DNA from: Nitrospirota bacterium
GTDB lineage: Bacteria > Nitrospirota > Nitrospiria > 2-01-FULL-66-17
Direction: 5' to 3'
NCBI GenBank assembly: GCA_049325335.1
Contig: JBMOMC010000002.1
Coordinates: forward strand, 160,001 to 224,000
Length of the DNA: 64,000 nucleotides
Part shown: positions 218 through 58,334 of the stretch, piece after piece
Layout: each line of letters begins with the position of its first letter
Position numbering within the stretch: the stretch's first letter is position 1
Made by a program: the position numbers and the translations under genes
The notes under the pieces: generated by a model
What the model was told of the DNA's origin: nothing
Database searches by the model: none
What the model saw: the letters and a program-made list of their open reading frames with translations, nothing else

Positions 218-1639
218 GTGACGGGTTTTACATTCTCAAGCCGTAAACCGTTGCCCGCGTTTCCGGGGTGGCGCGCCGCGCTCGGTCCCGGCATCGTGTG
301 GATGGCGCTCGCTCAAGGCAGCGGTGAACTCATCTGGTGGCCGTACGTGGTGGCCAAGTACGGTCTGACGTTTCTCGTACTGCTCATTCCCGCCTGTTTC
401 CTGCAATATCCGCTGACGGTGGCGATCGGCCGCTACACGTTGCTGACGGGCGAGACGATTTTCCACGGGTTCTTCCGTCTCAATCGTTGGGTGGGGATCG
501 CGTTGTGGATCTTAATGACGTTGTCCTTTTTGTGGTTTGGCGCGTTCGCCTCGGCGGGCGGCACGGCGCTGGCTGCCCTGACCGGTTTCCCTTCCGGATG
601 GACGCCGCGCGGGCAGACATTGTTCTGGGGCTATGCGTCGATCGCGGTCTTTGTCCTCGCGATCGCGTTTAGCGGCGTGGTGTACACGCTGATCGAGCGG
701 GTCATGAAGGCGGTTGCGTTCGTCACGGTCGGGGGACTCCTGTGGGCGTGCCTACAGTCCGACGTCGTTGCCGTCGTGCCCGACTTCCTCGGCGGCCTCG
801 TGACGATATCGACGAGCATGCCGCGTCCGTGGGATTCCGCCGACGCGACCAAGCTGCTCACCGCGGTGACGTTCGCGGGGCTTGGCGGGTTTTGGATCCT
901 CTTCTATTCGTATTGGTTGCGCGACAAGGGCAGCGCGATGGCCGCGCACGTCGGCCGGATCACGGGCCCGCTCGCCGGCAAGCCCGAGGCGATTCCGGCT
1001 GATGGGGCGCTGCCGGTGGATTCGCCCGAAGGCGCGGCGCGGTGGGCGACGTGGCGGCGCTATCTGTCGGTGGACGCGCTGATCGGGATCGGAGGCAATC
1101 TCGCCACGACGCTCATGACGTGCCTGTTGGCCTACGCGCTGCTCTTTCCCAATGGTCTGTTGCCGCAGGACTATGAGTTGGCCGTGGTGCAGGCTCGGTT
1201 TTTTGAGGTGAGTTGGGGCGCGTTCGGGCGCGTGTTGTTTTTACTCGTAGCCGCTGCGTTTTTGACCGACACGTGGATGGCCACGGCCGACGCGGTCAGC
1301 CGCATCCAAGCCGATATCGTCTACACGCTGTTCCCCAGGGCGCGCCGGCTGGAGGTTCGGCAGTGGTACTACGTGTTTCTCGGCGTGCTCACGGTGATTA
1401 CGTCGCTGACCATGCTGGTGGCGGCTCCGGGTCCGCTGATCCTCACGAGCGCGGTCATCGGCTTCGTCGGGACCGTGATTTTCCCCGTCGCGTTATTCGC
1501 GCTCAACCGCAAACTGGCGCCCGTAGTTCCCGCGTGGGCCGCGGCAAGCCGGAGCTCGCAGTGGTTTTTGGGGATGGCGTTCGTGGCGTACGCCGCGCTC
1601 GCGCTGGCATACCTCGGCGTATTGGGCGGGTGGTGGTAG
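218..1639 (+). CDS. Nramp-like divalent metal transporter family membrane protein
   Basis: [22 protein letters not shown]-terminal motif; many TM segments. Confidence 0.75.
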
Positions 1640-1663: not shown

Positions 1664-2478
1664 TGGATAATCGTGAGTTTCTTCGCTGCAGCCGTGACCG
1701 ACGCGACCTGTTCGATCACGGCGTTTGCCACCGCGCGAAACGCGTCGGCTTGGGCGGACGCCGGGTGGCTGTCCACCACGGGTCGGCCTTCGTCGCCGCC
1801 CACGCGGATGGCCAAGTCGATGGGGATCTCGCCCAGGAACGGCACGCCCAGGGCTTTCGCCGCGGTTTGTCCGCCGCCGTGGGAGAAGATGTCTGTGCGT
1901 TCCTTGCAGTGCGGGCAGAGAAACGAACTCATGTTTTCCACGATGCCCAACACCGGGACATGGACCTTTTGGAACATGGCCAGGCCCTTGCGCGAGTCGA
2001 GCAGCGAGACTTCTTGCGGGGTGGTGACGATCACCGCGCCCGTGAGCGGGATGAGTTGCGAGAGTGATAGTTGCGCATCGCCGGTTCCCGGCGGCAGATC
2101 CACGATCAGGTAATCGAGTTCTCCCCACTCCACGTCGCGCAGGAACTGCTGGATCGCGGAGTTGATCATGGGACCGCGCCAGACGATCGGGCTGTCTTCG
2201 GGCACGAAAAACCCGATCGACATCAACTTCACGCCATAACGAACCGGAGGCTGGAGTTTCTGTCCCTCGCTGCCGCGCAGGTCGGTTTGTTTCACGCCCA
2301 TCATCAAGGGCACGTTGGGGCCGTAGATATCGCAATCGAGCAAGCCCACCCGCAATCCGCGCTGGGCGAGCGCCGTCGCGAGGTTCACGGAGACGGTGGT
2401 TTTGCCCACGCCGCCCTTGCCGCTGCTGACCGCGACCGTGTGTTTGACGTGGGGGATGAGACTGTCCTGGTCCGGCAT
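1660..2478 (-). CDS. apbC: Mrp/ApbC (NBP35) Fe-S cluster carrier ATPase
   Basis: SGKGGVGKTT, DCDIYGPN, WRGPM, DLPPGTGD, CPHC motifs. Confidence 0.95.
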   Translation of the reverse strand: MPDQDSLIPHVKHTVAVSSGKGGVGKTTVSVNLATALAQRGLRVGLLDCDIYGPNVPLMMGVKQTDLRGSEGQKLQPPVRYGVKLMSIGFFVPEDSPIVWRGPMINSAIQQFLRDVEWGELDYLIVDLPPGTGDAQLSLSQLIPLTGAVIVTTPQEVSLLDSRKGLAMFQKVHVPVLGIVENMSSFLCPHCKERTDIFSHGGGQTAAKALGVPFLGEIPIDLAIRVGGDEGRPVVDSHPASAQADAFRAVANAVIEQVASVTAAAKKLTIIQ

Positions 2479-3616: not shown

Positions 3617-3693
3617 TGGCGCGCCCAGAGGGATTTGAACCCCCGACCTACGGATTCGTAGTCCGGCGCTCTATCCAGCTGAGCTATGGGCGC
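3617..3693 (-). tRNA. tRNA-Arg(ACG)
   Basis: Cloverleaf GCGCCCA..., anticodon loop CT-ACG-AA, GGTTCAAATCC T arm, encoded CCA. Confidence 0.95.
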
Positions 3694-4310: not shown

Positions 4311-4344
4311 CGGTCGAACGGTCCAGGATCCACGCAAGGGAACG

Positions 4345-4438
4345 TGGCGGAGAGGGAGGGATTTGAACCCTCGGTAGAGGTTTAAGCCCCTACGACGGTT
4401 TAGCAAACCGTTGCCTTCAGCCACTCGGCCACCTCTCC
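4345..4438 (-). tRNA. tRNA-Ser(GCT)
   Basis: GGAGAGGTGGCCGAGTGG..., anticodon GCT, long variable arm, CCA. Confidence 0.95.
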
Positions 4439-4440
4439 TC

Positions 4441-4492
4441 CTCGCTTGCGTAGCGCAACATAGGGCCTGATTTCCCGGCCCGAGGCTGCGAG
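4441..4492 (-). ncRNA. Unassigned structured RNA motif, copy A (5' of tRNA-Ser GCT)
   Basis: CUCGC/GCGAG closing stem, GGGCC-GG-GAAA-UC-A-GGCCC hairpin, UUGCG-CUA-CGCAA hairpin; covaries with copy C. Confidence 0.6.
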
Positions 4493-4520
4493 ACGATGCT
4501 GCCTCTCGCCTTCCGTCAAT

Positions 4521-4571
4521 CTCGCTAGCGTAACCGAACGTAGCGGGGGTTTCCCGGCGCGAGGCTCGGAG
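4521..4571 (-). ncRNA. Unassigned structured RNA motif, copy B (degenerate tandem copy, 80-bp period)
   Basis: Aligns to copy A along its length and keeps the GG-GAAA-CC loop. Confidence 0.5.
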
Positions 4572-4626
4572 ACGCTTGTACTCTGCTGCGGTTCGCTCGC
4601 GTTAAGTGCGCCCCGCAAAGTCCCTG

Positions 4627-4679
4627 ATTGTAGGAAAATATGGTGTGATTTGCAATGGCCTGTTGGAACTTCCTATAAT
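4627..4679. promoter_or_regulatory. Divergent sigma70 promoters sharing a palindromic -35 (TTGCAA)
   Basis: Minus strand: TTGCAA-17-TACAAT toward tRNA-Ser. Plus strand: TTGCAA-18-TATAAT, 7 nt before ATG 4687. Confidence 0.7.
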
Positions 4680-4686
4680 TCGCCCC

Positions 4687-5841
4687 ATGTATACCCGAAT
4701 TCTCTTCCTGTCGGTGCTAGTGGTTGCCGCGGGCATCGCCTGCACCAAGGGCAAGAATCGCGAGCCGACGCCTGATTTGTTTCGTCCGAGCGGGGTTTAC
4801 CAGGTAGGGAACAACCCGACGTTCCTCGCGACCGCCGACTTTAACCGCGATCGCGTCCCGGATCTGGTCACCGCCAATATCAACGGCCAGAATGTCTCCG
4901 TGCTCCTCGGGACCGGCGACGGCACGTTCGCCGAGCGCGTCCGGTATCGGGTGGGGGAATTGCCGCGGATGCTGGTGGCCGTGGACCTCACGCAGGATGG
5001 GGCGCCCGACATGGTGGTGGCCAACAACGGGAGCAATTCGCTGTCGGTCCTGAAAAATCGCGGGGACGGCACGTTCGAGGACGCCGTGCACCGTCCGGTC
5101 GGGCAATCTCCGCTGGCGATCGCGGCGGGAGATTTTAACGGGGACACCCTCGTGGACGTGGCCGTGTGTCTGCGATTCGACCACTTGGTCATTTTGTTGG
5201 GGGATGGACTCGGCGGGTTCGTTGATGGGGAGATGTTTGACCCCGGCGATACACCGGCCTCCGTGGTGGCCGAAGACTTTAATCGCGATGGCCGGGTGGA
5301 TTTGGCGGTGGCGAACAGCGGCAACATGAAGGGCAATGTGACGATTTTTCTGGGCGACGGCGCCGGCCATTTTACGCGAGCCGGCGAATACGGCAACCAT
5401 ATACGGCCGATCTACATGACCATGGGCGATTTCAACGGCGACGGCCACTCGGATTTGGTCGAGACCGACGGCCCGAGAAATCTCCTGACCCTGTTTCTCG
5501 GAAAGGGCGACGGCGGATTCGATGAAGGGCACGGCTTTGCCGCGGAGAGCGGCCCGGTGTTCATTGCGCCCGGGGACTTTAACCGCGACGGCCGCCTGGA
5601 CGTGGCCGTCACCAACACGGTTAGCCACAGTCTATCGGTGGTGGTCGGCAACGGGGATGGCAGTTTTCAGTTCCCGCCGTTTGATTACCAAACCGACCGC
5701 GGGCCGTTTGCCGCGGTGGCGGCGGACTTAAACGCGGACGGCGTGCTCGATGTGGCGGTCGCGCACTTTCAAAGCGAAAACGTCATGGTGTGGTTGGGGC
5801 GGGGGGAGCAAGAGCGGCAGGGGCAGAAGACGACGGGGTGA
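4687..5841 (+). CDS. FG-GAP/VCBS repeat lipoprotein (beta-propeller)
   Basis: About seven DFNxDGxxD repeats; lipobox GIAC. Confidence 0.88.
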   Translation: MYTRILFLSVLVVAAGIACTKGKNREPTPDLFRPSGVYQVGNNPTFLATADFNRDRVPDLVTANINGQNVSVLLGTGDGTFAERVRYRVGELPRMLVAVDLTQDGAPDMVVANNGSNSLSVLKNRGDGTFEDAVHRPVGQSPLAIAAGDFNGDTLVDVAVCLRFDHLVILLGDGLGGFVDGEMFDPGDTPASVVAEDFNRDGRVDLAVANSGNMKGNVTIFLGDGAGHFTRAGEYGNHIRPIYMTMGDFNGDGHSDLVETDGPRNLLTLFLGKGDGGFDEGHGFAAESGPVFIAPGDFNRDGRLDVAVTNTVSHSLSVVVGNGDGSFQFPPFDYQTDRGPFAAVAADLNADGVLDVAVAHFQSENVMVWLGRGEQERQGQKTTG

Positions 5842-5983
5842 GGGGGCGATCGGGGGGAACAAGCAGTGTCAAAGGGGTTTTGCCGCCTCGGCACTGGAGT
5901 TCACTCATCCGTTAGACACCGCGCGCGCGGAGCGGAGGGGTAGGATTGCTGCGCCATCCTACCCAAGACCTCGGTTAGATTTT

Positions 5984-6069
5984 TGGCGGAGGGGGTAGGA
6001 TTCGAACCCACGTCCCTTTCGGGATACGGTTTTCAAGACCGTCGCCTTCGACCACTCGGCCACCCCTCC
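5984..6069 (-). tRNA. tRNA-Ser(TGA)
   Basis: GGAGGGGTGGCCGAGTGG..., anticodon TGA, variable arm, CCA. Confidence 0.95.
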
Positions 6070-6073
6070 CCAC

Positions 6074-6124
6074 CTCGCCTGCGTAGCGCCCCACAGCCCC
6101 TGGTTCCCCGGGGCCAGGAGCGAG
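6074..6124 (-). ncRNA. Unassigned structured RNA motif, copy C (5' of tRNA-Ser TGA)
   Basis: CUCGC/GCGAG, GCCCC-GG-GGAA-CC-A-GGGGC, GCG-CUA-CGC. Confidence 0.6.
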
Positions 6125-6142
6125 AGCATTAAGAGCTCGGTT

Positions 6143-7813
6143 TTAATACGTCCGTTCCTTCGGCGGATACTTCGTAATCGTGACCGGCAGGAACTCGAGC
6201 CGCGGACCCTCCGGCGTGTAATACGCCATTGTGTGTTTGAGCCAGTTCACGTCGTCGCGGGTCGGAAAATCCCGTCGGGCGTGGGCGCCGCGACTTTCCT
6301 GCCGCGCAATCGCGCCCGCCACAATGGTTTCGGCCAGATCCATCAGCGAGCCCAGTTCCAGGGCCGAGACCAACTCGGTGTTGAACACCCGGCTCTTGTC
6401 CTGAATCGCGACCGACTCCGCGCGCGGACGGATGCCGCGCAGCGCCTCGCGCGCGCGTTCTAATTTTTCGCGCGTGCGGAACACGCCTACGTCGTCGCTC
6501 ATGATCTGTCCCAACGCGTCGCGCACCGCGGCCACACGTTCGCCGGATTTGCGGCTGCGGAGCGCTTCGATCCGGTCGCGGTCTCGCGCCAGTTCGGTCC
6601 GGCCCACGTCCCGCGGCGCGGTGTTGCCTCGAATCTGTTTGAGCGCGTCCAACGCGCTGCGCCGCCCGAACACGATCGTGTCCAAGAGCGAGTTGCCGCC
6701 CAGTCGGTTGCCGCCGTGTACGCTCACGCACGCGCACTCGCCGGCCGCGTACAACCCGGGGATCGCGGTGCGTCCCCAGGAGTCGGTCTTGATTCCACCC
6801 ATGCTGTAGTGCGCGCCGGGGCGGATGGGGATCGGCGCCTCGATCGCGTCGACGCCGACGTAGGTCAGAGCCAACTCGCGGATTTGGGGGAGGCGCTCCA
6901 GAATTTTTTGCCGGCCTAAGTGCCGAAGATCCAACAGCACGCAGCCGTTTACTCCCCGTCCCGCGTCGATTTCTTCCTGCTCCGCGCGCGAGACCACGTC
7001 GCGGCTCGCCAGCTCTACCTTGTTGGGCGCATATTTCGCCATGAATCGCTCGCCAGCCGCGTTGAGCAGGTAGCCACCCTCGCCGCGCGCGCCTTCGCTG
7101 ATCAAGATGCCCGTGCGTTTGAGCGTGGTGGGGTGAAACTGCACCATCTCCATGTCCATCAGCGGCGCGCCCGCGCGGTAGGCCATGCTCATGCCGTCGC
7201 CGGTGTTGATCAATGCGTTGGTGCTGAGCGAGAACACGCGGCCGTAACCGCCCGTGGCCAGGATCACGGCGTTGGCCGCGATGGCCTCCATCTCGCCGGT
7301 CAGCACGTTCATGGCCACGCACCCGCGGCACGCGCCGTCTTCGATGATCAACGACGTGACGTACCACTCCGAATAGGTGCGTGCGTTTCGGCGCACCAGT
7401 TGTTCGTACATGACGTGTAACAGGGCGTGCCCGGTGCGGTCCGCCGCGTAGCAGGTGCGGGGAAAACTCGCGGCCCCGAACGGGCGTTGCGCGATCGTGC
7501 CCTCGGGCGTGCGGCTGAAGATCGCGCCCCGGCGTTCCAATTCGAAAATGTCTTCGGGCCCTTCCTGGCACATCACCTCGATGGCGTCCTGGTCCCCGAG
7601 GTAATCGCTGCCCTTGACCGTGTCGAACGTGTGCGACTCCCAGGAGTCCGCGGGGTCGACCGCGGCGTTGATCCCGCCCTGCGCCGCCACCGAATGGCTG
7701 CGCAGAGGGTGCACCTTGGAGATCAACGCCACGTCCAGGCCTTCCGGGACCTCGATCGCGGCGCGCATGCCCGCCAACCCGCCGCCGATAATCAAAATGT
7801 CGTGAGAGAACAT
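6143..7813 (-). CDS. sdhA: Succinate dehydrogenase/fumarate reductase flavoprotein subunit
   Basis: Start MFSHDILIIGGGLAG; RSHSVAAQGG covalent-FAD His; QFHPT, HYSMGG, HGGNRLGGNSL, ESRGAH. Confidence 0.92.
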   Translation of the reverse strand: MFSHDILIIGGGLAGMRAAIEVPEGLDVALISKVHPLRSHSVAAQGGINAAVDPADSWESHTFDTVKGSDYLGDQDAIEVMCQEGPEDIFELERRGAIFSRTPEGTIAQRPFGAASFPRTCYAADRTGHALLHVMYEQLVRRNARTYSEWYVTSLIIEDGACRGCVAMNVLTGEMEAIAANAVILATGGYGRVFSLSTNALINTGDGMSMAYRAGAPLMDMEMVQFHPTTLKRTGILISEGARGEGGYLLNAAGERFMAKYAPNKVELASRDVVSRAEQEEIDAGRGVNGCVLLDLRHLGRQKILERLPQIRELALTYVGVDAIEAPIPIRPGAHYSMGGIKTDSWGRTAIPGLYAAGECACVSVHGGNRLGGNSLLDTIVFGRRSALDALKQIRGNTAPRDVGRTELARDRDRIEALRSRKSGERVAAVRDALGQIMSDDVGVFRTREKLERAREALRGIRPRAESVAIQDKSRVFNTELVSALELGSLMDLAETIVAGAIARQESRGAHARRDFPTRDDVNWLKHTMAYYTPEGPRLEFLPVTITKYPPKERTY

Positions 7814-27682: not shown

Positions 27683-27757
27683 TGGTGGGCGATGCTGGTA
27701 TCGAACCAGCGGCCTCTTGCGTGTGAAGCAAGCGCTCTACCACTGAGCTAATCGCCC
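27683..27757 (-). tRNA. tRNA-Val(CAC)
   Basis: GGGCGATTAGCTCAGTGGTAGAGCG, anticodon CAC, encoded CCA. Confidence 0.95.
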
Positions 27758-41758: not shown

Positions 41759-41940
41759 GTGGACCCCCATTGACGGGGCAAGCATAGGGGCACTCCCCCG
41801 GATTTGTAAAGGCCGATGGGCGTGGGTGGCGTGGGTCGGGGTATGGAGCATCCCGATACTCGGTCCGCTGACGGTGACGAGTATCATGACTCGTGTTGAC
41901 TTCGGGCAGCGCGCGGCCGTAGAATCCAACCCTCATATGC

Positions 41941-42024
41941 GCTGGGGGAGCCCTTTGGGGCTGAGAGTCCGCCGAGTCGGACAACCCTTTGAACCTGATC
42001 TGGATTATGCCAGCGAAGGGAAGC
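41941..42024 (+). ncRNA. TPP riboswitch
   Basis: GGGG..GCTGAGA...ACCC TTTGAACCTGATCTGGATTATGCCAGCGAAGGGA, upstream of thiC. Confidence 0.95.
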
Positions 42025-42040
42025 GGGATCTGTGATACAC

Positions 42041-58241: not shown

Positions 58242-58334
58242 GGGTCGGCATCATATCAGAACGGCAAGTCCTCGTCAGTTGGACGGTGGTTGCTACGCCA
58301 CCTCTATGGAACGGAGCGATTACAGGGCCTCCTT

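Follow-up and report, generated by a model that had tools for sequence, protein, structure and literature searches.

A family-restricted structured repeat flush with tRNA ends and upstream of protein genes in Nitrospirota

Both tRNA-Ser genes in the region studied are directly preceded by the same structured element, which raises the question of whether it belongs to serine tRNAs or has a wider role. The window is the whole stretch of 64,000 nucleotides that was analysed. The earlier note had read the element as a leader RNA specific for tRNA-Ser, folded as a three-way junction and possibly a self-cleaving ribozyme. Our results indicate that it is most likely a general RNA "punctuation mark" and not a serine-tRNA switch or a ribozyme, because it lies flush with many tRNA ends and ahead of many protein genes. 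We establish here its placement, the covariation of its hairpin, its restriction to one family and the predicted promoters upstream of it. A role in processing or stability is our best guess.

Copies in the window and their fold

Three copies (Table 1) were found where they had been claimed, with gaps of 0-3 nt to the tRNA 5' ends according to ARAGORN and the covariance model. Copy A abuts tRNA-Ser(GCT). Copy B is a tandem copy upstream of A, with stems that differ in sequence from those of A and retain the pairing. Copy C lies between tRNA-Ser(TGA) and the stop codon (6143-6145) of a gene encoding a succinate dehydrogenase/fumarate reductase flavoprotein (Pfam on the ORF). Mean column identity across the alignment of A, B and C is 77%. 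The covariance-model scan agreed with the earlier observation that tRNA-Arg and tRNA-Val are not preceded by a copy. Among the DNA contigs of four runs, which were mostly tRNA cross-mapping, one minor contig lacked copy B.

Table 1. Coordinates of the element copies and adjoining features in the window
Feature	Position	Strand	Parts	Basis
tRNA-Ser(GCT)	4345..4438	-		ARAGORN; Rfam tRNA, 60.7 bits
tRNA-Ser(GCT) trailer, resembling a decayed antisense tail	4330..4344	-		By eye; one case, weak
Copy A	4436..4504	-	5' flank 4491-4504; long hairpin 4454-4490; conserved tail 4439-4453	Covariance model, 79.7 bits; alignment; pair counts
Copy B	4516..4583	-	Hairpin 4534-4569; tail 4519-4533	Covariance model, 66.2 bits; alignment
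Sigma-70-type promoter-like site	4627..4655	-	TTGCAA-17-TACAAT	Consensus scan; prediction
tRNA-Ser(TGA)	5984..6069	-		ARAGORN; Rfam tRNA, 62.9 bits
Copy C	6069..6136	-	Hairpin 6087-6122; tail 6072-6086	Covariance model, 66.3 bits; stem types

The element is about 70 nt long. Its purine/A-rich 5' flank is followed by a 12-bp hairpin, capped by a loop of the GGGAA type, and then by a conserved tail, a single strand of about 17 nt with the core GC-W-AGC-NN-GG. In the long stem a conserved 3x3 internal loop separates 6 bp from 5 bp, and the stem also takes up the bases that had been assigned to the closing stem and third hairpin of the junction. Pairs were counted in 16 copies from the same genome and, more widely, in 83 distinct copies from 7 genomes. 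In one count 94.7% of the long stem is paired and both sides change at 8 of the 12 pairs. In the 83 copies, 96.5% of hairpin cells are paired, against 75.9% in shuffles and at most 47.9% when partner columns are slid, with changes on both sides in 144 cells where shuffles give 37.8. The compensated swaps described for the inner hairpin, GGGCC/GGCCC in copy A versus GCCCC/GGGGC in copy C, were also recovered. Of the fold proposed earlier, one hairpin therefore stands, with strong compensatory changes, while the closing stem and the GCG-CUA-CGC hairpin do not: both-side changes occur at 0 of 5 and 0 of 3 of their pairs, respectively, in the 16 copies, and over the 83 copies the paired fraction of the junction helices, 74.8%, is below the mean of the shuffles, 76.8%, with 500 of 500 shuffles equal or better. 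Structural support comes from covariation and placement and not from energy, since folding of the three window copies as single sequences is unremarkable (z = -0.69, -0.39 and -2.07). The sense strand outfolds the antisense strand in 70 of 79 copies.

Stem and tail variants fall into few discrete types, which form 38 combinations and recur at unrelated loci. Much of the covariation therefore reflects a few events that then spread, as in repeat subfamilies. The stem of copy C differs from a common type by two G-C to C-G flips and is absent from every other copy examined, which argues for compensation at the copy C locus itself. Pairs of the G.T kind on the element's own strand make up 0.129 of pairs in antisense copies and 0.142 in sense copies. 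The antisense copies thus show no adaptation to being read in antisense within a tRNA transcript, and this is easier to reconcile with recognition of DNA or of the own strand than with the element working as RNA in both orientations. The core of the tail is nearly palindromic over 8 bp, and its outer pair covaries (C-G 58, A-T 16). A second tail variant (AGCAAGCTCGG) is present in 13 of the 83 copies; genome-specific, concerted tail variants were discarded, both variants occurring together in 5 of 7 genomes.

Rfam gave no match to the element at any setting used. At gathering thresholds the window contains only a TPP riboswitch and four tRNAs; at E up to 1, the element remained without a match at five loci with copies; at E up to 10, the 190-nt leader gave only a chance miRNA match of 11.9 bits; and the loci of relatives were likewise without an element match. 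The families without a match on the element include the T-box, riboswitches, hammerhead, twister, hatchet and pistol; the earlier note had not recognized it as a T-box, riboswitch or known ribozyme. The ribozyme idea is unsupported, because no Rfam ribozyme was matched and the junction on which it relied is absent. A likeness to group II intron domain V, with AGC paired with GUU and a GNRA loop, was rejected: the two differ in bulge and stem geometry, and the surroundings showed neither an intron nor a reverse transcriptase.

Placement in the genome and among relatives

A census of the whole genome G000 gave 22 copies, 15 of which adjoin a tRNA or tmRNA end at -5 to +11 nt. Nine are in sense orientation and flush with a 5' end (four tRNA-Ser, two tRNA-Glu, tRNA-Tyr, an Ile2-type tRNA with CAU anticodon, and tmRNA), and six are antisense and flush with a 3' end (after tRNA-Pro, Thr, Asp and Ser). 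Two are tandem copies, and five lie just upstream of the ribosome-binding sites of genes for GroES, MetK, PPDK, cytochrome b and DUF420. None of the 22 lies within a gene or in other intergenic DNA. Of the 13 element-bearing tRNA/tmRNA genes, 4 are each bracketed by two copies. Copies unlinked to tRNAs had been named beforehand as evidence against a tRNA leader; many copies are indeed dispersed in the genome, but most still stand at tRNA ends. The similar census of genome G004 covered stretches around 37 of its 47 matches and yielded 43 copies. Seven of these are sense copies at the 5' end of a tRNA and another 7 are antisense copies at a tRNA 3' end; 17 precede an ORF start, 8 are tandem or partial copies, and 4 fall into none of these classes. 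Among the 83 distinct copies of the 7 genomes, a scripted classification placed 22 in sense at a 5' end and the same number in antisense at a 3' end, and the printed contexts added 2 tRNA cases, 13 copies before ORFs and 15 tandem copies.

The tail always faces the functional RNA, namely a tRNA/tmRNA 5' end or a Shine-Dalgarno sequence when the copy is sense and a tRNA 3' end when it is antisense. Before protein genes 13 copies are sense and 1 is antisense. The sequence after the tail is G-rich in every context. Protein genes behind the element are often internal to operons, and copies are also found in the spacers tRNA-Lys/tRNA-Glu, tRNA-Thr/tRNA-Tyr, rpoD-like gene/tRNA and smpB-like gene/tmRNA; in the tRNA-Thr/tuf spacer the copy leaves only about 35 nt to the tuf start. 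The company is one of housekeeping genes (GroES/GroEL, the EF-Tu spacer, L19, tRNAs), some of them typically highly expressed. The idea that antisense copies serve convergent genes in their 3' UTRs was considered and dropped, the neighbours being co-directional (tRNA-Thr followed by tuf, tRNA-Pro followed by a surE-like gene).

These data bear directly on the Ser-specific leader. It is true that all four tRNA-Ser genes of G000 carry a sense copy at the 5' end and that unpaired nucleotides are conserved. However, nine other tRNA/tmRNA ends and five protein genes carry the element in the same genome, half of the tRNA-linked copies are antisense, and neither the junction helices nor Rfam lend it support. 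We consider this reading very improbable.

The element is present in 7 of 7 genomes of one Nitrospirota family, comprising two genera, with 10-47 matches per genome. Outside the family, one weak copy was found among 24 genomes of the class. This stray copy belongs to a lower-GC genome of another family, where it stands beside a sub-threshold tRNA-like sequence and its neighbours are ORFs resembling toxin-antitoxin genes. Several tRNA ends are occupied in both genera (e.g. Tyr 5', Ser 5', Pro(GGG) 3' and Thr(GGT) 3'), while the Gln 3', Ala 3' and Gly 5' ends are filled in relatives and empty in G000. The length of the tandem array at a given tRNA differs between genomes, with 1-4 units. The ordinary tRNA-Gln/prs spacer is unalignable even within a genus. 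Plasmids, phages and viral contigs gave no element match. In the literature, outside the subscription journals, we did not find any bacterial repeat described as abutting tRNA genes at both ends.

Transcription signals and repeat features

The promoter-like site listed in Table 1 lies upstream of copies B and A and would start a transcript with B, A and tRNA-Ser(GCT). Its first hexamer is shared with a divergent promoter-like site of an FG-GAP gene. The consensus scan gave 3 sites against 0.5 expected. A promoter is also predicted upstream of the groES copy, where 16 nt separate the end of the -10 box from the element, and a consensus one upstream of the tRNA-Lys/Glu pair; promoter-like sites upstream of the tRNA-Glu(CTC) copy and metK were seen by eye. 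By prediction, then, the copies lie within transcribed spacers between cistrons, and a place of the window copies in a transcribed tRNA leader is still tenable. Inside the window copies, a scan found neither sigma-70-like hexamers at 16-18 nt spacing nor terminator-like sites. Most copies have no U-tract after the hairpin in either orientation, the antisense flank having at most 3-4 U about 6 nt past the stem. Since their signals are missing, readings of the element as a promoter or a terminator were rejected.

A broader explanation at the DNA level would have the element act at heavily transcribed borders as a promoter, a terminator or insulator, or as a site for a nucleoid or topology protein formed by the near-palindrome of the tail. 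Such a signal fits the mirrored placement, in which a polymerase coming from either side of a tRNA gene meets the element in the same orientation, and it fits the covarying outer pair of the palindrome and the highly expressed neighbours. However, the promoter-like sites lie upstream of the copies, the would-be -35 falls in a variable loop that tolerates a 60-nt insert, and the column for the invariant A of the -10 is A in only 42% of copies. Moreover, the stems covary and have G.T pairs on one strand, which suggests that the folded form is single-stranded. We regard this explanation as unlikely.

The conserved unpaired positions (internal loop, loop and tail, at 0.9-1.0) are what a protein site predicts, and a regulatory leader bound by a protein, e.g. 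at a CsrA-type site, was considered; tandem arrays released from tRNA leaders by RNase P might serve as protein sponges. The GGGAA-like loop and the GGA-containing tail (...GAGGAUGG) resemble the CsrA SELEX core, the genome has a csrA gene, and arrays of 2-4 units precede some tRNAs. On the other hand, GGA is missing from the second tail variant and from many loops, and CsrA is widespread whereas the element is limited to one family. We consider a protein-bound leader of this kind distinctly improbable.

A serious rival is that the element is a selfish, non-autonomous mobile repeat (MITE/REP-like) with no host function, whose insertion targets tRNA-like borders and G-rich Shine-Dalgarno-like sites. 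Its machinery may recognize the foot of the acceptor-stem inverted repeat, which looks alike from both sides, and this would explain the mirrored orientation. The spread of copy number from 10 to 47, the arrays of varying length at one tRNA, the unequal occupancy of orthologous tRNA ends, the discrete subfamilies at unrelated loci, the own-strand G.T pairs retained in both orientations, the stray copy in another family and the G-rich sequence after the tail are all consistent with it. In addition, a second dispersed repeat sits in the hairpin loop of four copies, and such nesting is typical of mobile DNA. Several observations argue against it. Four Y1-transposase (PF01797) genes are present in the genome and none adjoins a copy. 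The 3-kb loci of these genes gave no match to the profiles of the element and of module X, and at two of them (L051 and L053) other, unrelated inverted repeats lie on both sides of the transposase gene. The REP/RAYT link was thus discarded, as the Y1-transposase genes are not flanked by the element. Neither a target-site duplication nor a clean filled/empty pair was seen in three comparisons of filled and empty tRNA ends, where the spacers are too diverged to align. No copy was found on plasmids, phages or viral contigs, and the G000 census found none in genes or neutral intergenic DNA. The near-constant sense orientation before protein genes, the identical tRNA ends occupied in two genera, and copy C, a unique variant compensated at its own locus, also speak against a selfish repeat. 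We hold it possible, with appreciable but limited weight. As to terminal inverted repeats of the MITE kind, flank and tail share only an imperfect match of 5-7 bp, which does not covary.

The REP/BIME and REPIN repeats of proteobacteria are strictly extragenic, transcribed in operons and lineage-specific; they affect mRNA stability, and REPs lie mostly 3' of genes. Like these repeats (on which see PMC12306157), the element is a short imperfect extragenic palindrome, here a 12-pair hairpin with all G000 copies extragenic, that occurs in both orientations, in clusters and in one lineage. In contrast to them, it has tens of matches per genome and not hundreds, and no conserved GTAG-type tetranucleotide: CTNC follows the hairpin, with A at the matching variable position in 42% of copies. 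Also unlike REPs, it does not flank the Y1 (RAYT-like) genes, and its conserved tail is turned in every case towards a tRNA end or a Shine-Dalgarno sequence. The Correia elements (CREE) of Neisseria yield RNA processed by RNase III and have long terminal inverted repeats and a TA duplication, and mycobacterial MIRUs are intercistronic, fixed in orientation to the operon genes and carry a small coupling ORF. Both resemble the element in being small structured repeats within transcription units near gene starts, but the element has no long terminal inverted repeats or TA duplication and no coupling ORF, and to our knowledge neither CREE nor MIRU hugs tRNA ends in mirrored orientation. The retrotransposons TRE5/TRE3 of Dictyostelium and Ty3 of yeast find their targets through the Pol III machinery and integrate tens of bases away from tRNA genes. 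They share position and orientation specificity at both sides of tRNA genes with the element, which however is bacterial, 70 nt long, directly abuts the mature ends and is linked to no known enzyme.

A proposed role at cistron borders

The reading that we prefer, with a probability of about 0.4, is a lineage-specific, REP/MITE-like structured repeat whose hairpin would act in the RNA, serving processing or stability where cistrons meet. We infer the following steps. The stable hairpin would block exonucleases and RNases that depend on the 5' end, and would keep the adjoining tRNA or ribosome-binding site free of mispairing. An endonuclease of the RNase E/G type, or RNase III, may cut the single-stranded flank or tail and so separate the cistrons, after which RNase P would strip the 5' module from tRNAs. 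Genes for RNase P RNA, RNase III and RNase E/G are present in the genome. It counts against this scheme that the hairpin, with its 12-14 bp, is short by the standard of classical RNase III sites. Origin and continuing turnover of the family are probably those of a REP/MITE-type repeat, with tandem expansion, gain and loss, and nesting with the second repeat.

A more specific and rather doubtful form of the idea is a dedicated hairpin-plus-tail signal with a specific reader that may mark tRNA, tmRNA and cistron borders. The reader could be an endonuclease or RNA-binding protein, or a mobilization machinery that homes to the foot of the acceptor stem from both sides. With a protein reader, this would be a bacterial "punctuation code", a mirror image of the tRNA punctuation of mitochondria; with homing, it would be the first bacterial counterpart of the eukaryotic tRNA-targeted elements.

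If the element is functional, the lineage would have invented a reusable RNA module that sets the limits of tRNAs and cistrons in long transcripts, and RNA engineering would gain a compact natural "insulator" hairpin. Should the element be selfish, the flush and mirrored placement at tRNA ends would point to a new kind of target recognition in bacteria. Under either reading, a covarying hairpin beside a tRNA is, alone, no evidence of a tRNA-specific regulator. For the annotation of these uncultured Nitrospirota, the element accounts for dozens of conserved intergenic blocks.

Two copies around one tRNA might also pair with each other, giving a leader-trailer helix of about 55 bp comparable to the processing stems of rRNA operons. 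Folding of two-copy-bracketed precursors predicted such a long helix around a correct cloverleaf. Copies that bracket the same tRNA do not resemble each other more closely than copies in general and their stem types differ, so the helix does not seem to be specifically maintained, and specific selection on it is not supported. The bracketed tRNAs share with the leader-trailer stems of rRNA operons (PMC10250234) the predicted long helix and the presence of an RNase III gene. They differ in that only 4 of 13 element-bearing genes are bracketed, the arms are not specially matched, and the element also stands ahead of protein genes. The trailer of tRNA-Ser(GCT) (Table 1) contains a stretch of 9 nt complementary to the copy A tail, and in the predicted fold of the whole precursor the trailer pairs with the leader.

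The element in the window and its fold

The four tRNA genes of the window all lie on the minus strand, with ARAGORN and Rfam in agreement. Each tRNA-Ser gene is preceded, on the tRNA strand, by a block of ~70 nt that stops at the gene's 5' end, and a third block lies in tandem upstream of that of tRNA-Ser(GCT). The mean column identity of the three aligned copies is 77%. The alignment and the covariance model confirmed the coordinates that an earlier note had given for them, and its flush junctions with the tRNA-Ser 5' ends and compensated differences in the inner hairpin are also correct.

Coordinates of features (positions in the window unless a contig, C, or extracted locus, L, is named)
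Feature	Location	Strand	Evidence
tRNA-Arg(ACG)	3617-3693	-	ARAGORN, Rfam
tRNA-Ser(GCT)	4345-4438	-	ARAGORN, Rfam
Copy A	4436-4504	-	covariance model
Minor-contig joint	4495-4607		contig joins 4495 to 4607
Copy B	4516-4583	-	covariance model
Divergent promoter-like sites	4627-4679		sigma-70-type
Site TTGCAA-17-TACAAT	4655 to 4627	-	sigma-70-type, predicted
Hexamer TTGCAA	4650-4655		palindromic
FG-GAP repeat protein gene (384 aa)	4687-5841		Pfam FG-GAP_3, 4.2e-55
9-bp hairpin	~5940-5968		perfect, GC-rich
tRNA-Ser(TGA)	5984-6069	-	ARAGORN, Rfam
Copy C	6069-6136	-	covariance model
tRNA-Val(CAC)	27683-27757	-	ARAGORN, Rfam
TPP riboswitch	41934-42038	+	76.1 bits vs gathering score 54.3
Module X	~58290-58324	-	weak match
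Module X	G000 C1:58940-59001; C1:36571-36634; C44:38773-38837; C2:421243-421305; others		
Tail-only remnant	G000 C43:308140	-	
Copy outside the family	L027 (G019:C2) 1501-1627		
Y1-transposase inverted repeats	L051 1359-1381 / 2432-2454		
Y1-transposase inverted repeats	L053 1388-1419 / 2440-2471		

Since single-sequence folding of the three copies was unremarkable (z = -0.69, -0.39 and -2.07 against shuffles), structures were tested on homologues. In 16 copies from G000, the genome of the window, pairing in one long hairpin reaches 94.7%, compared with 73.8% in shuffles and no more than 46.3% with partner columns slid, and 8 of its 12 pairs change on both sides. Over 83 distinct copies from seven genomes its pairing is 96.5%, and 144 cells are doubly changed where 37.8 would be expected. 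A 6-bp segment leads through a 3x3 internal loop, in which U.G or U-A forms the central pair, to a 5-bp segment capped by a loop beginning GGGAA. The closing stem and third hairpin that would complete a three-way junction show no two-sided change in the 16 copies and are 74.8% paired in the 83, slightly below the shuffles' 76.8%. Their bases form the outer half of the long hairpin, where changes of CGC to GGC or CCG have their co-changing partner in the hairpin and not in the tail. The element is therefore a flank, a hairpin and a tail instead of a three-way junction. The tail (~17 nt) that follows the hairpin is largely unpaired and shows high conservation, with covariation in one flanking pair (C-G in 58 copies, A-U in 16). 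Both strands of the element fold (~-19 vs ~-16 kcal/mol).

Distribution at tRNA ends and protein starts

BLAST, nhmmer and the covariance model detected 22 copies in the 3.25-Mb G000 genome. Nine are sense and flush with a 5' end: all four tRNA-Ser genes, both tRNA-Glu genes, tRNA-Tyr, a CAU-anticodon tRNA beside an rpoD-like gene, and tmRNA. Six are antisense and flush with a 3' end (tRNA-Pro(GGG), Thr(GGT), Asp, Ser(CGA), Ser(GGA) and CAU tRNA), the tail running directly into the complement of CCA or of the discriminator base. Two are tandem partners, and five end 9-13 nt upstream of a protein start codon with only the Shine-Dalgarno sequence between; four of these genes are Pfam-confirmed (GroES, MetK, DUF420, PPDK) and the fifth is read as cytochrome b from its likeness to a Pfam-confirmed relative. 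The genome census found no copy outside these settings. Chance cannot account for 15 of 22 copies falling within ~12 nt of a tRNA end, since such zones cover about 0.05% of the genome. (Without its linear option, ARAGORN overlooked four tRNA genes, Thr, Tyr, Gly and Thr, in the multi-contig file; they lie at the start of a contig, G000 C45:215-714.) With Glu, Tyr, CAU, Pro, Thr and Asp tRNAs, tmRNA and five protein genes also occupied, the proposed specificity for serine tRNAs is lost; the specific regulatory or catalytic reading does not hold, and a Ser-specific junction or ribozyme is very improbable. A tail-only remnant (…CGCAAGCGAGG, then GGGAGG) stands without a hairpin before a long ORF, presumably RNase Y; the tail may be longer-lived than the hairpin.

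The model matched all six other genomes of the family, which spans two genera, and each of the seven holds 10-47 matches at E up to 1e-4. Ten other families of the class, sampled with 24 genomes, gave a single weak match, in a lower-GC genome (G019). This only copy found outside the family has the same flank and tail with a shorter hairpin. It directly adjoins, in antisense, a Glu-like tRNA candidate that scores below threshold (23.3 bits), and lies downstream of ORFs resembling toxin-antitoxin genes; it may be a horizontally moved fragment. A degenerate pattern scan of one genome for each of 185,579 species returned 60 stretches: 29 in five MAGs labelled Nitrospirae, Nitrospirota or Nitrospiria, and 31 single matches in as many unrelated records, probably chance in GC-rich DNA.

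A script scored 22 of the 83 distinct copies as sense at a tRNA/tmRNA 5' end and 22 as antisense at a tRNA 3' end. That left 39 to be sorted by printed sequence context: another copy follows 15, a Shine-Dalgarno sequence and ORF follow 13, three lie beside a second repeat, module X, two more belong to tRNAs but have a variant tail, two continue into masked bases, one stands antisense after a stop codon, one is the other strand of a palindromic copy and two were not assigned. In a genome of the second genus, stretches covering 37 of 47 matches hold 43 copies. Seven are sense at 5' and seven antisense at 3' tRNA ends, 17 precede an ORF start, 8 are tandem or partial, and 4 have other settings. 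Pfam families were matched by 14 of 15 submitted ORFs behind these copies, including GroEL, Lon, ribosomal protein L19, cytochrome b, Rieske protein, CheW, FlgD, FliL and T2SS-M; NusA and FtsA genes also stand behind copies in relatives. Many of these genes are typically operon-internal.

Transcript context and a putative role

By prediction, the copies lie inside transcripts. One sigma-70-type site is predicted upstream of copies B and A. It is one of two divergent sites sharing a palindromic hexamer, of which one would serve the tRNA-Ser(GCT) leader and the other the FG-GAP repeat protein gene. Some 20 nt beyond tRNA-Ser(TGA), a hairpin GGGTAGGAT...ATCCTACCC that lacks a U-tract may mark where that transcript ends. 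A consensus scan found no promoter-like or terminator-like sites within the window copies, and DNA-level signals are an improbable explanation. Elsewhere, copies fill or sit in spacers of co-directional genes (tRNA-Lys/tRNA-Glu, tRNA-Thr/tRNA-Tyr, smpB-like gene end/tmRNA and, for copy C, flavoprotein gene end/tRNA-Ser(TGA)). In two genera tuf starts within ~35 nt after the antisense copy behind tRNA-Thr(GGT), and a surE-like gene follows, on the same strand, that behind tRNA-Pro(GGG). Because these neighbours are co-directional, antisense copies are ruled out as 3' UTR elements of convergent genes; if transcribed, they would be antisense RNA in the tRNA trailer.

We tentatively propose, at a probability of about 40%, that the element is an RNA-level punctuation module. 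A stable hairpin with conserved unpaired positions, its tail touching the functional RNA and its A/U-rich flank toward the neighbouring cistron, would both block RNases and give them a landmark, and would insulate the folding of the tRNA or ribosome-binding site next to it. We infer every processing step; genes for RNase P RNA, RNase III and RNase E/G are present in G000. Two copies bracket the tRNA in 4 of 13 element-bearing genes of G000, and the predicted fold of such a precursor has a leader-trailer helix of ~55 bp around a correct cloverleaf; it is reminiscent of rRNA processing stems, although its two arms are not specially matched. A protein-binding leader, such as a CsrA site, is less probable still than DNA-level signals; G000 has a csrA gene.

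The mobile-repeat rival and module X

The main rival of the punctuation module, a non-autonomous mobile repeat homing to tRNA borders, is possible but doubtful; it ranks above DNA-level signals, a protein-binding leader and a Ser-specific junction or ribozyme. Signs that the repeat is dynamic include a roughly fivefold spread of copy number within the family and arrays of 1, 2 or 3.5 units before tRNA-Ser(TGA) in three genomes. Some tRNA ends that are empty in G000 are filled in relatives, where divergence of the spacers is too great to reveal clean borders of an insertion or a duplication. A small set of discrete stem and tail types, in 38 combinations, is found again and again at unrelated loci; four copies carry module X in the loop, and own-strand G.T pairs are as frequent in antisense as in sense copies. 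Other observations speak against a simple selfish repeat. None of the four Y1-transposase genes has a copy beside it, searches of plasmids, phages and viral contigs gave no match, and no gene is interrupted by a copy. Copies before protein genes are nearly all in sense orientation, members of both genera carry copies at the same tRNA ends, and the stem variant of copy C is unique and compensated at that locus. A weak hint of a co-occurring relative without tandem copy B comes from a minor contig (depth 36.7 vs ~380), with 29 other letters at its joint, in a sequencing run that may represent the source sample; the likeness of this contig is low and the shorter side of the joint has only 34 letters.

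The closest known kinds are REP/BIME, Correia and MIRU-type intergenic repeats, with which the element has in common its size, hairpin, extragenic and operon-internal position, and lineage restriction. It departs from the REP definition in RAYT linkage, conserved tetranucleotide and copy number, and from all three kinds in its conserved tail and flush, mirrored placement at tRNA/tmRNA ends. Full-text searches of the literature turned up no bacterial case of this placement. The curious observation is real, and the element is therefore filed as a variant among such repeats, which it resembles and from which tail and tRNA-end placement set it apart.

Module X (~62 nt) is a second dispersed structured repeat, which starts with GGAACCTGCAC, has a covarying GC-rich hairpin and ends with CAGGTGGCGAAGCAA; it has no match in Rfam. 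It occurs alone in at least ten places (matches at E < 0.1), as a ~62-nt structured insert within the loop of the hairpin in four 'long' copies (tmRNA 5', Glu(CTC) 5', Ser(CGA) 3' and Asp 3') and, in relatives, between the element tail and the tRNA/tmRNA end. Inverted repeats of 23-32 bp, with no relation to the element, enclose two of the four Y1-transposase (PF01797) genes of G000, in what looks like a separate REP/RAYT or IS200-like system. The window also contains a full-length TPP riboswitch.
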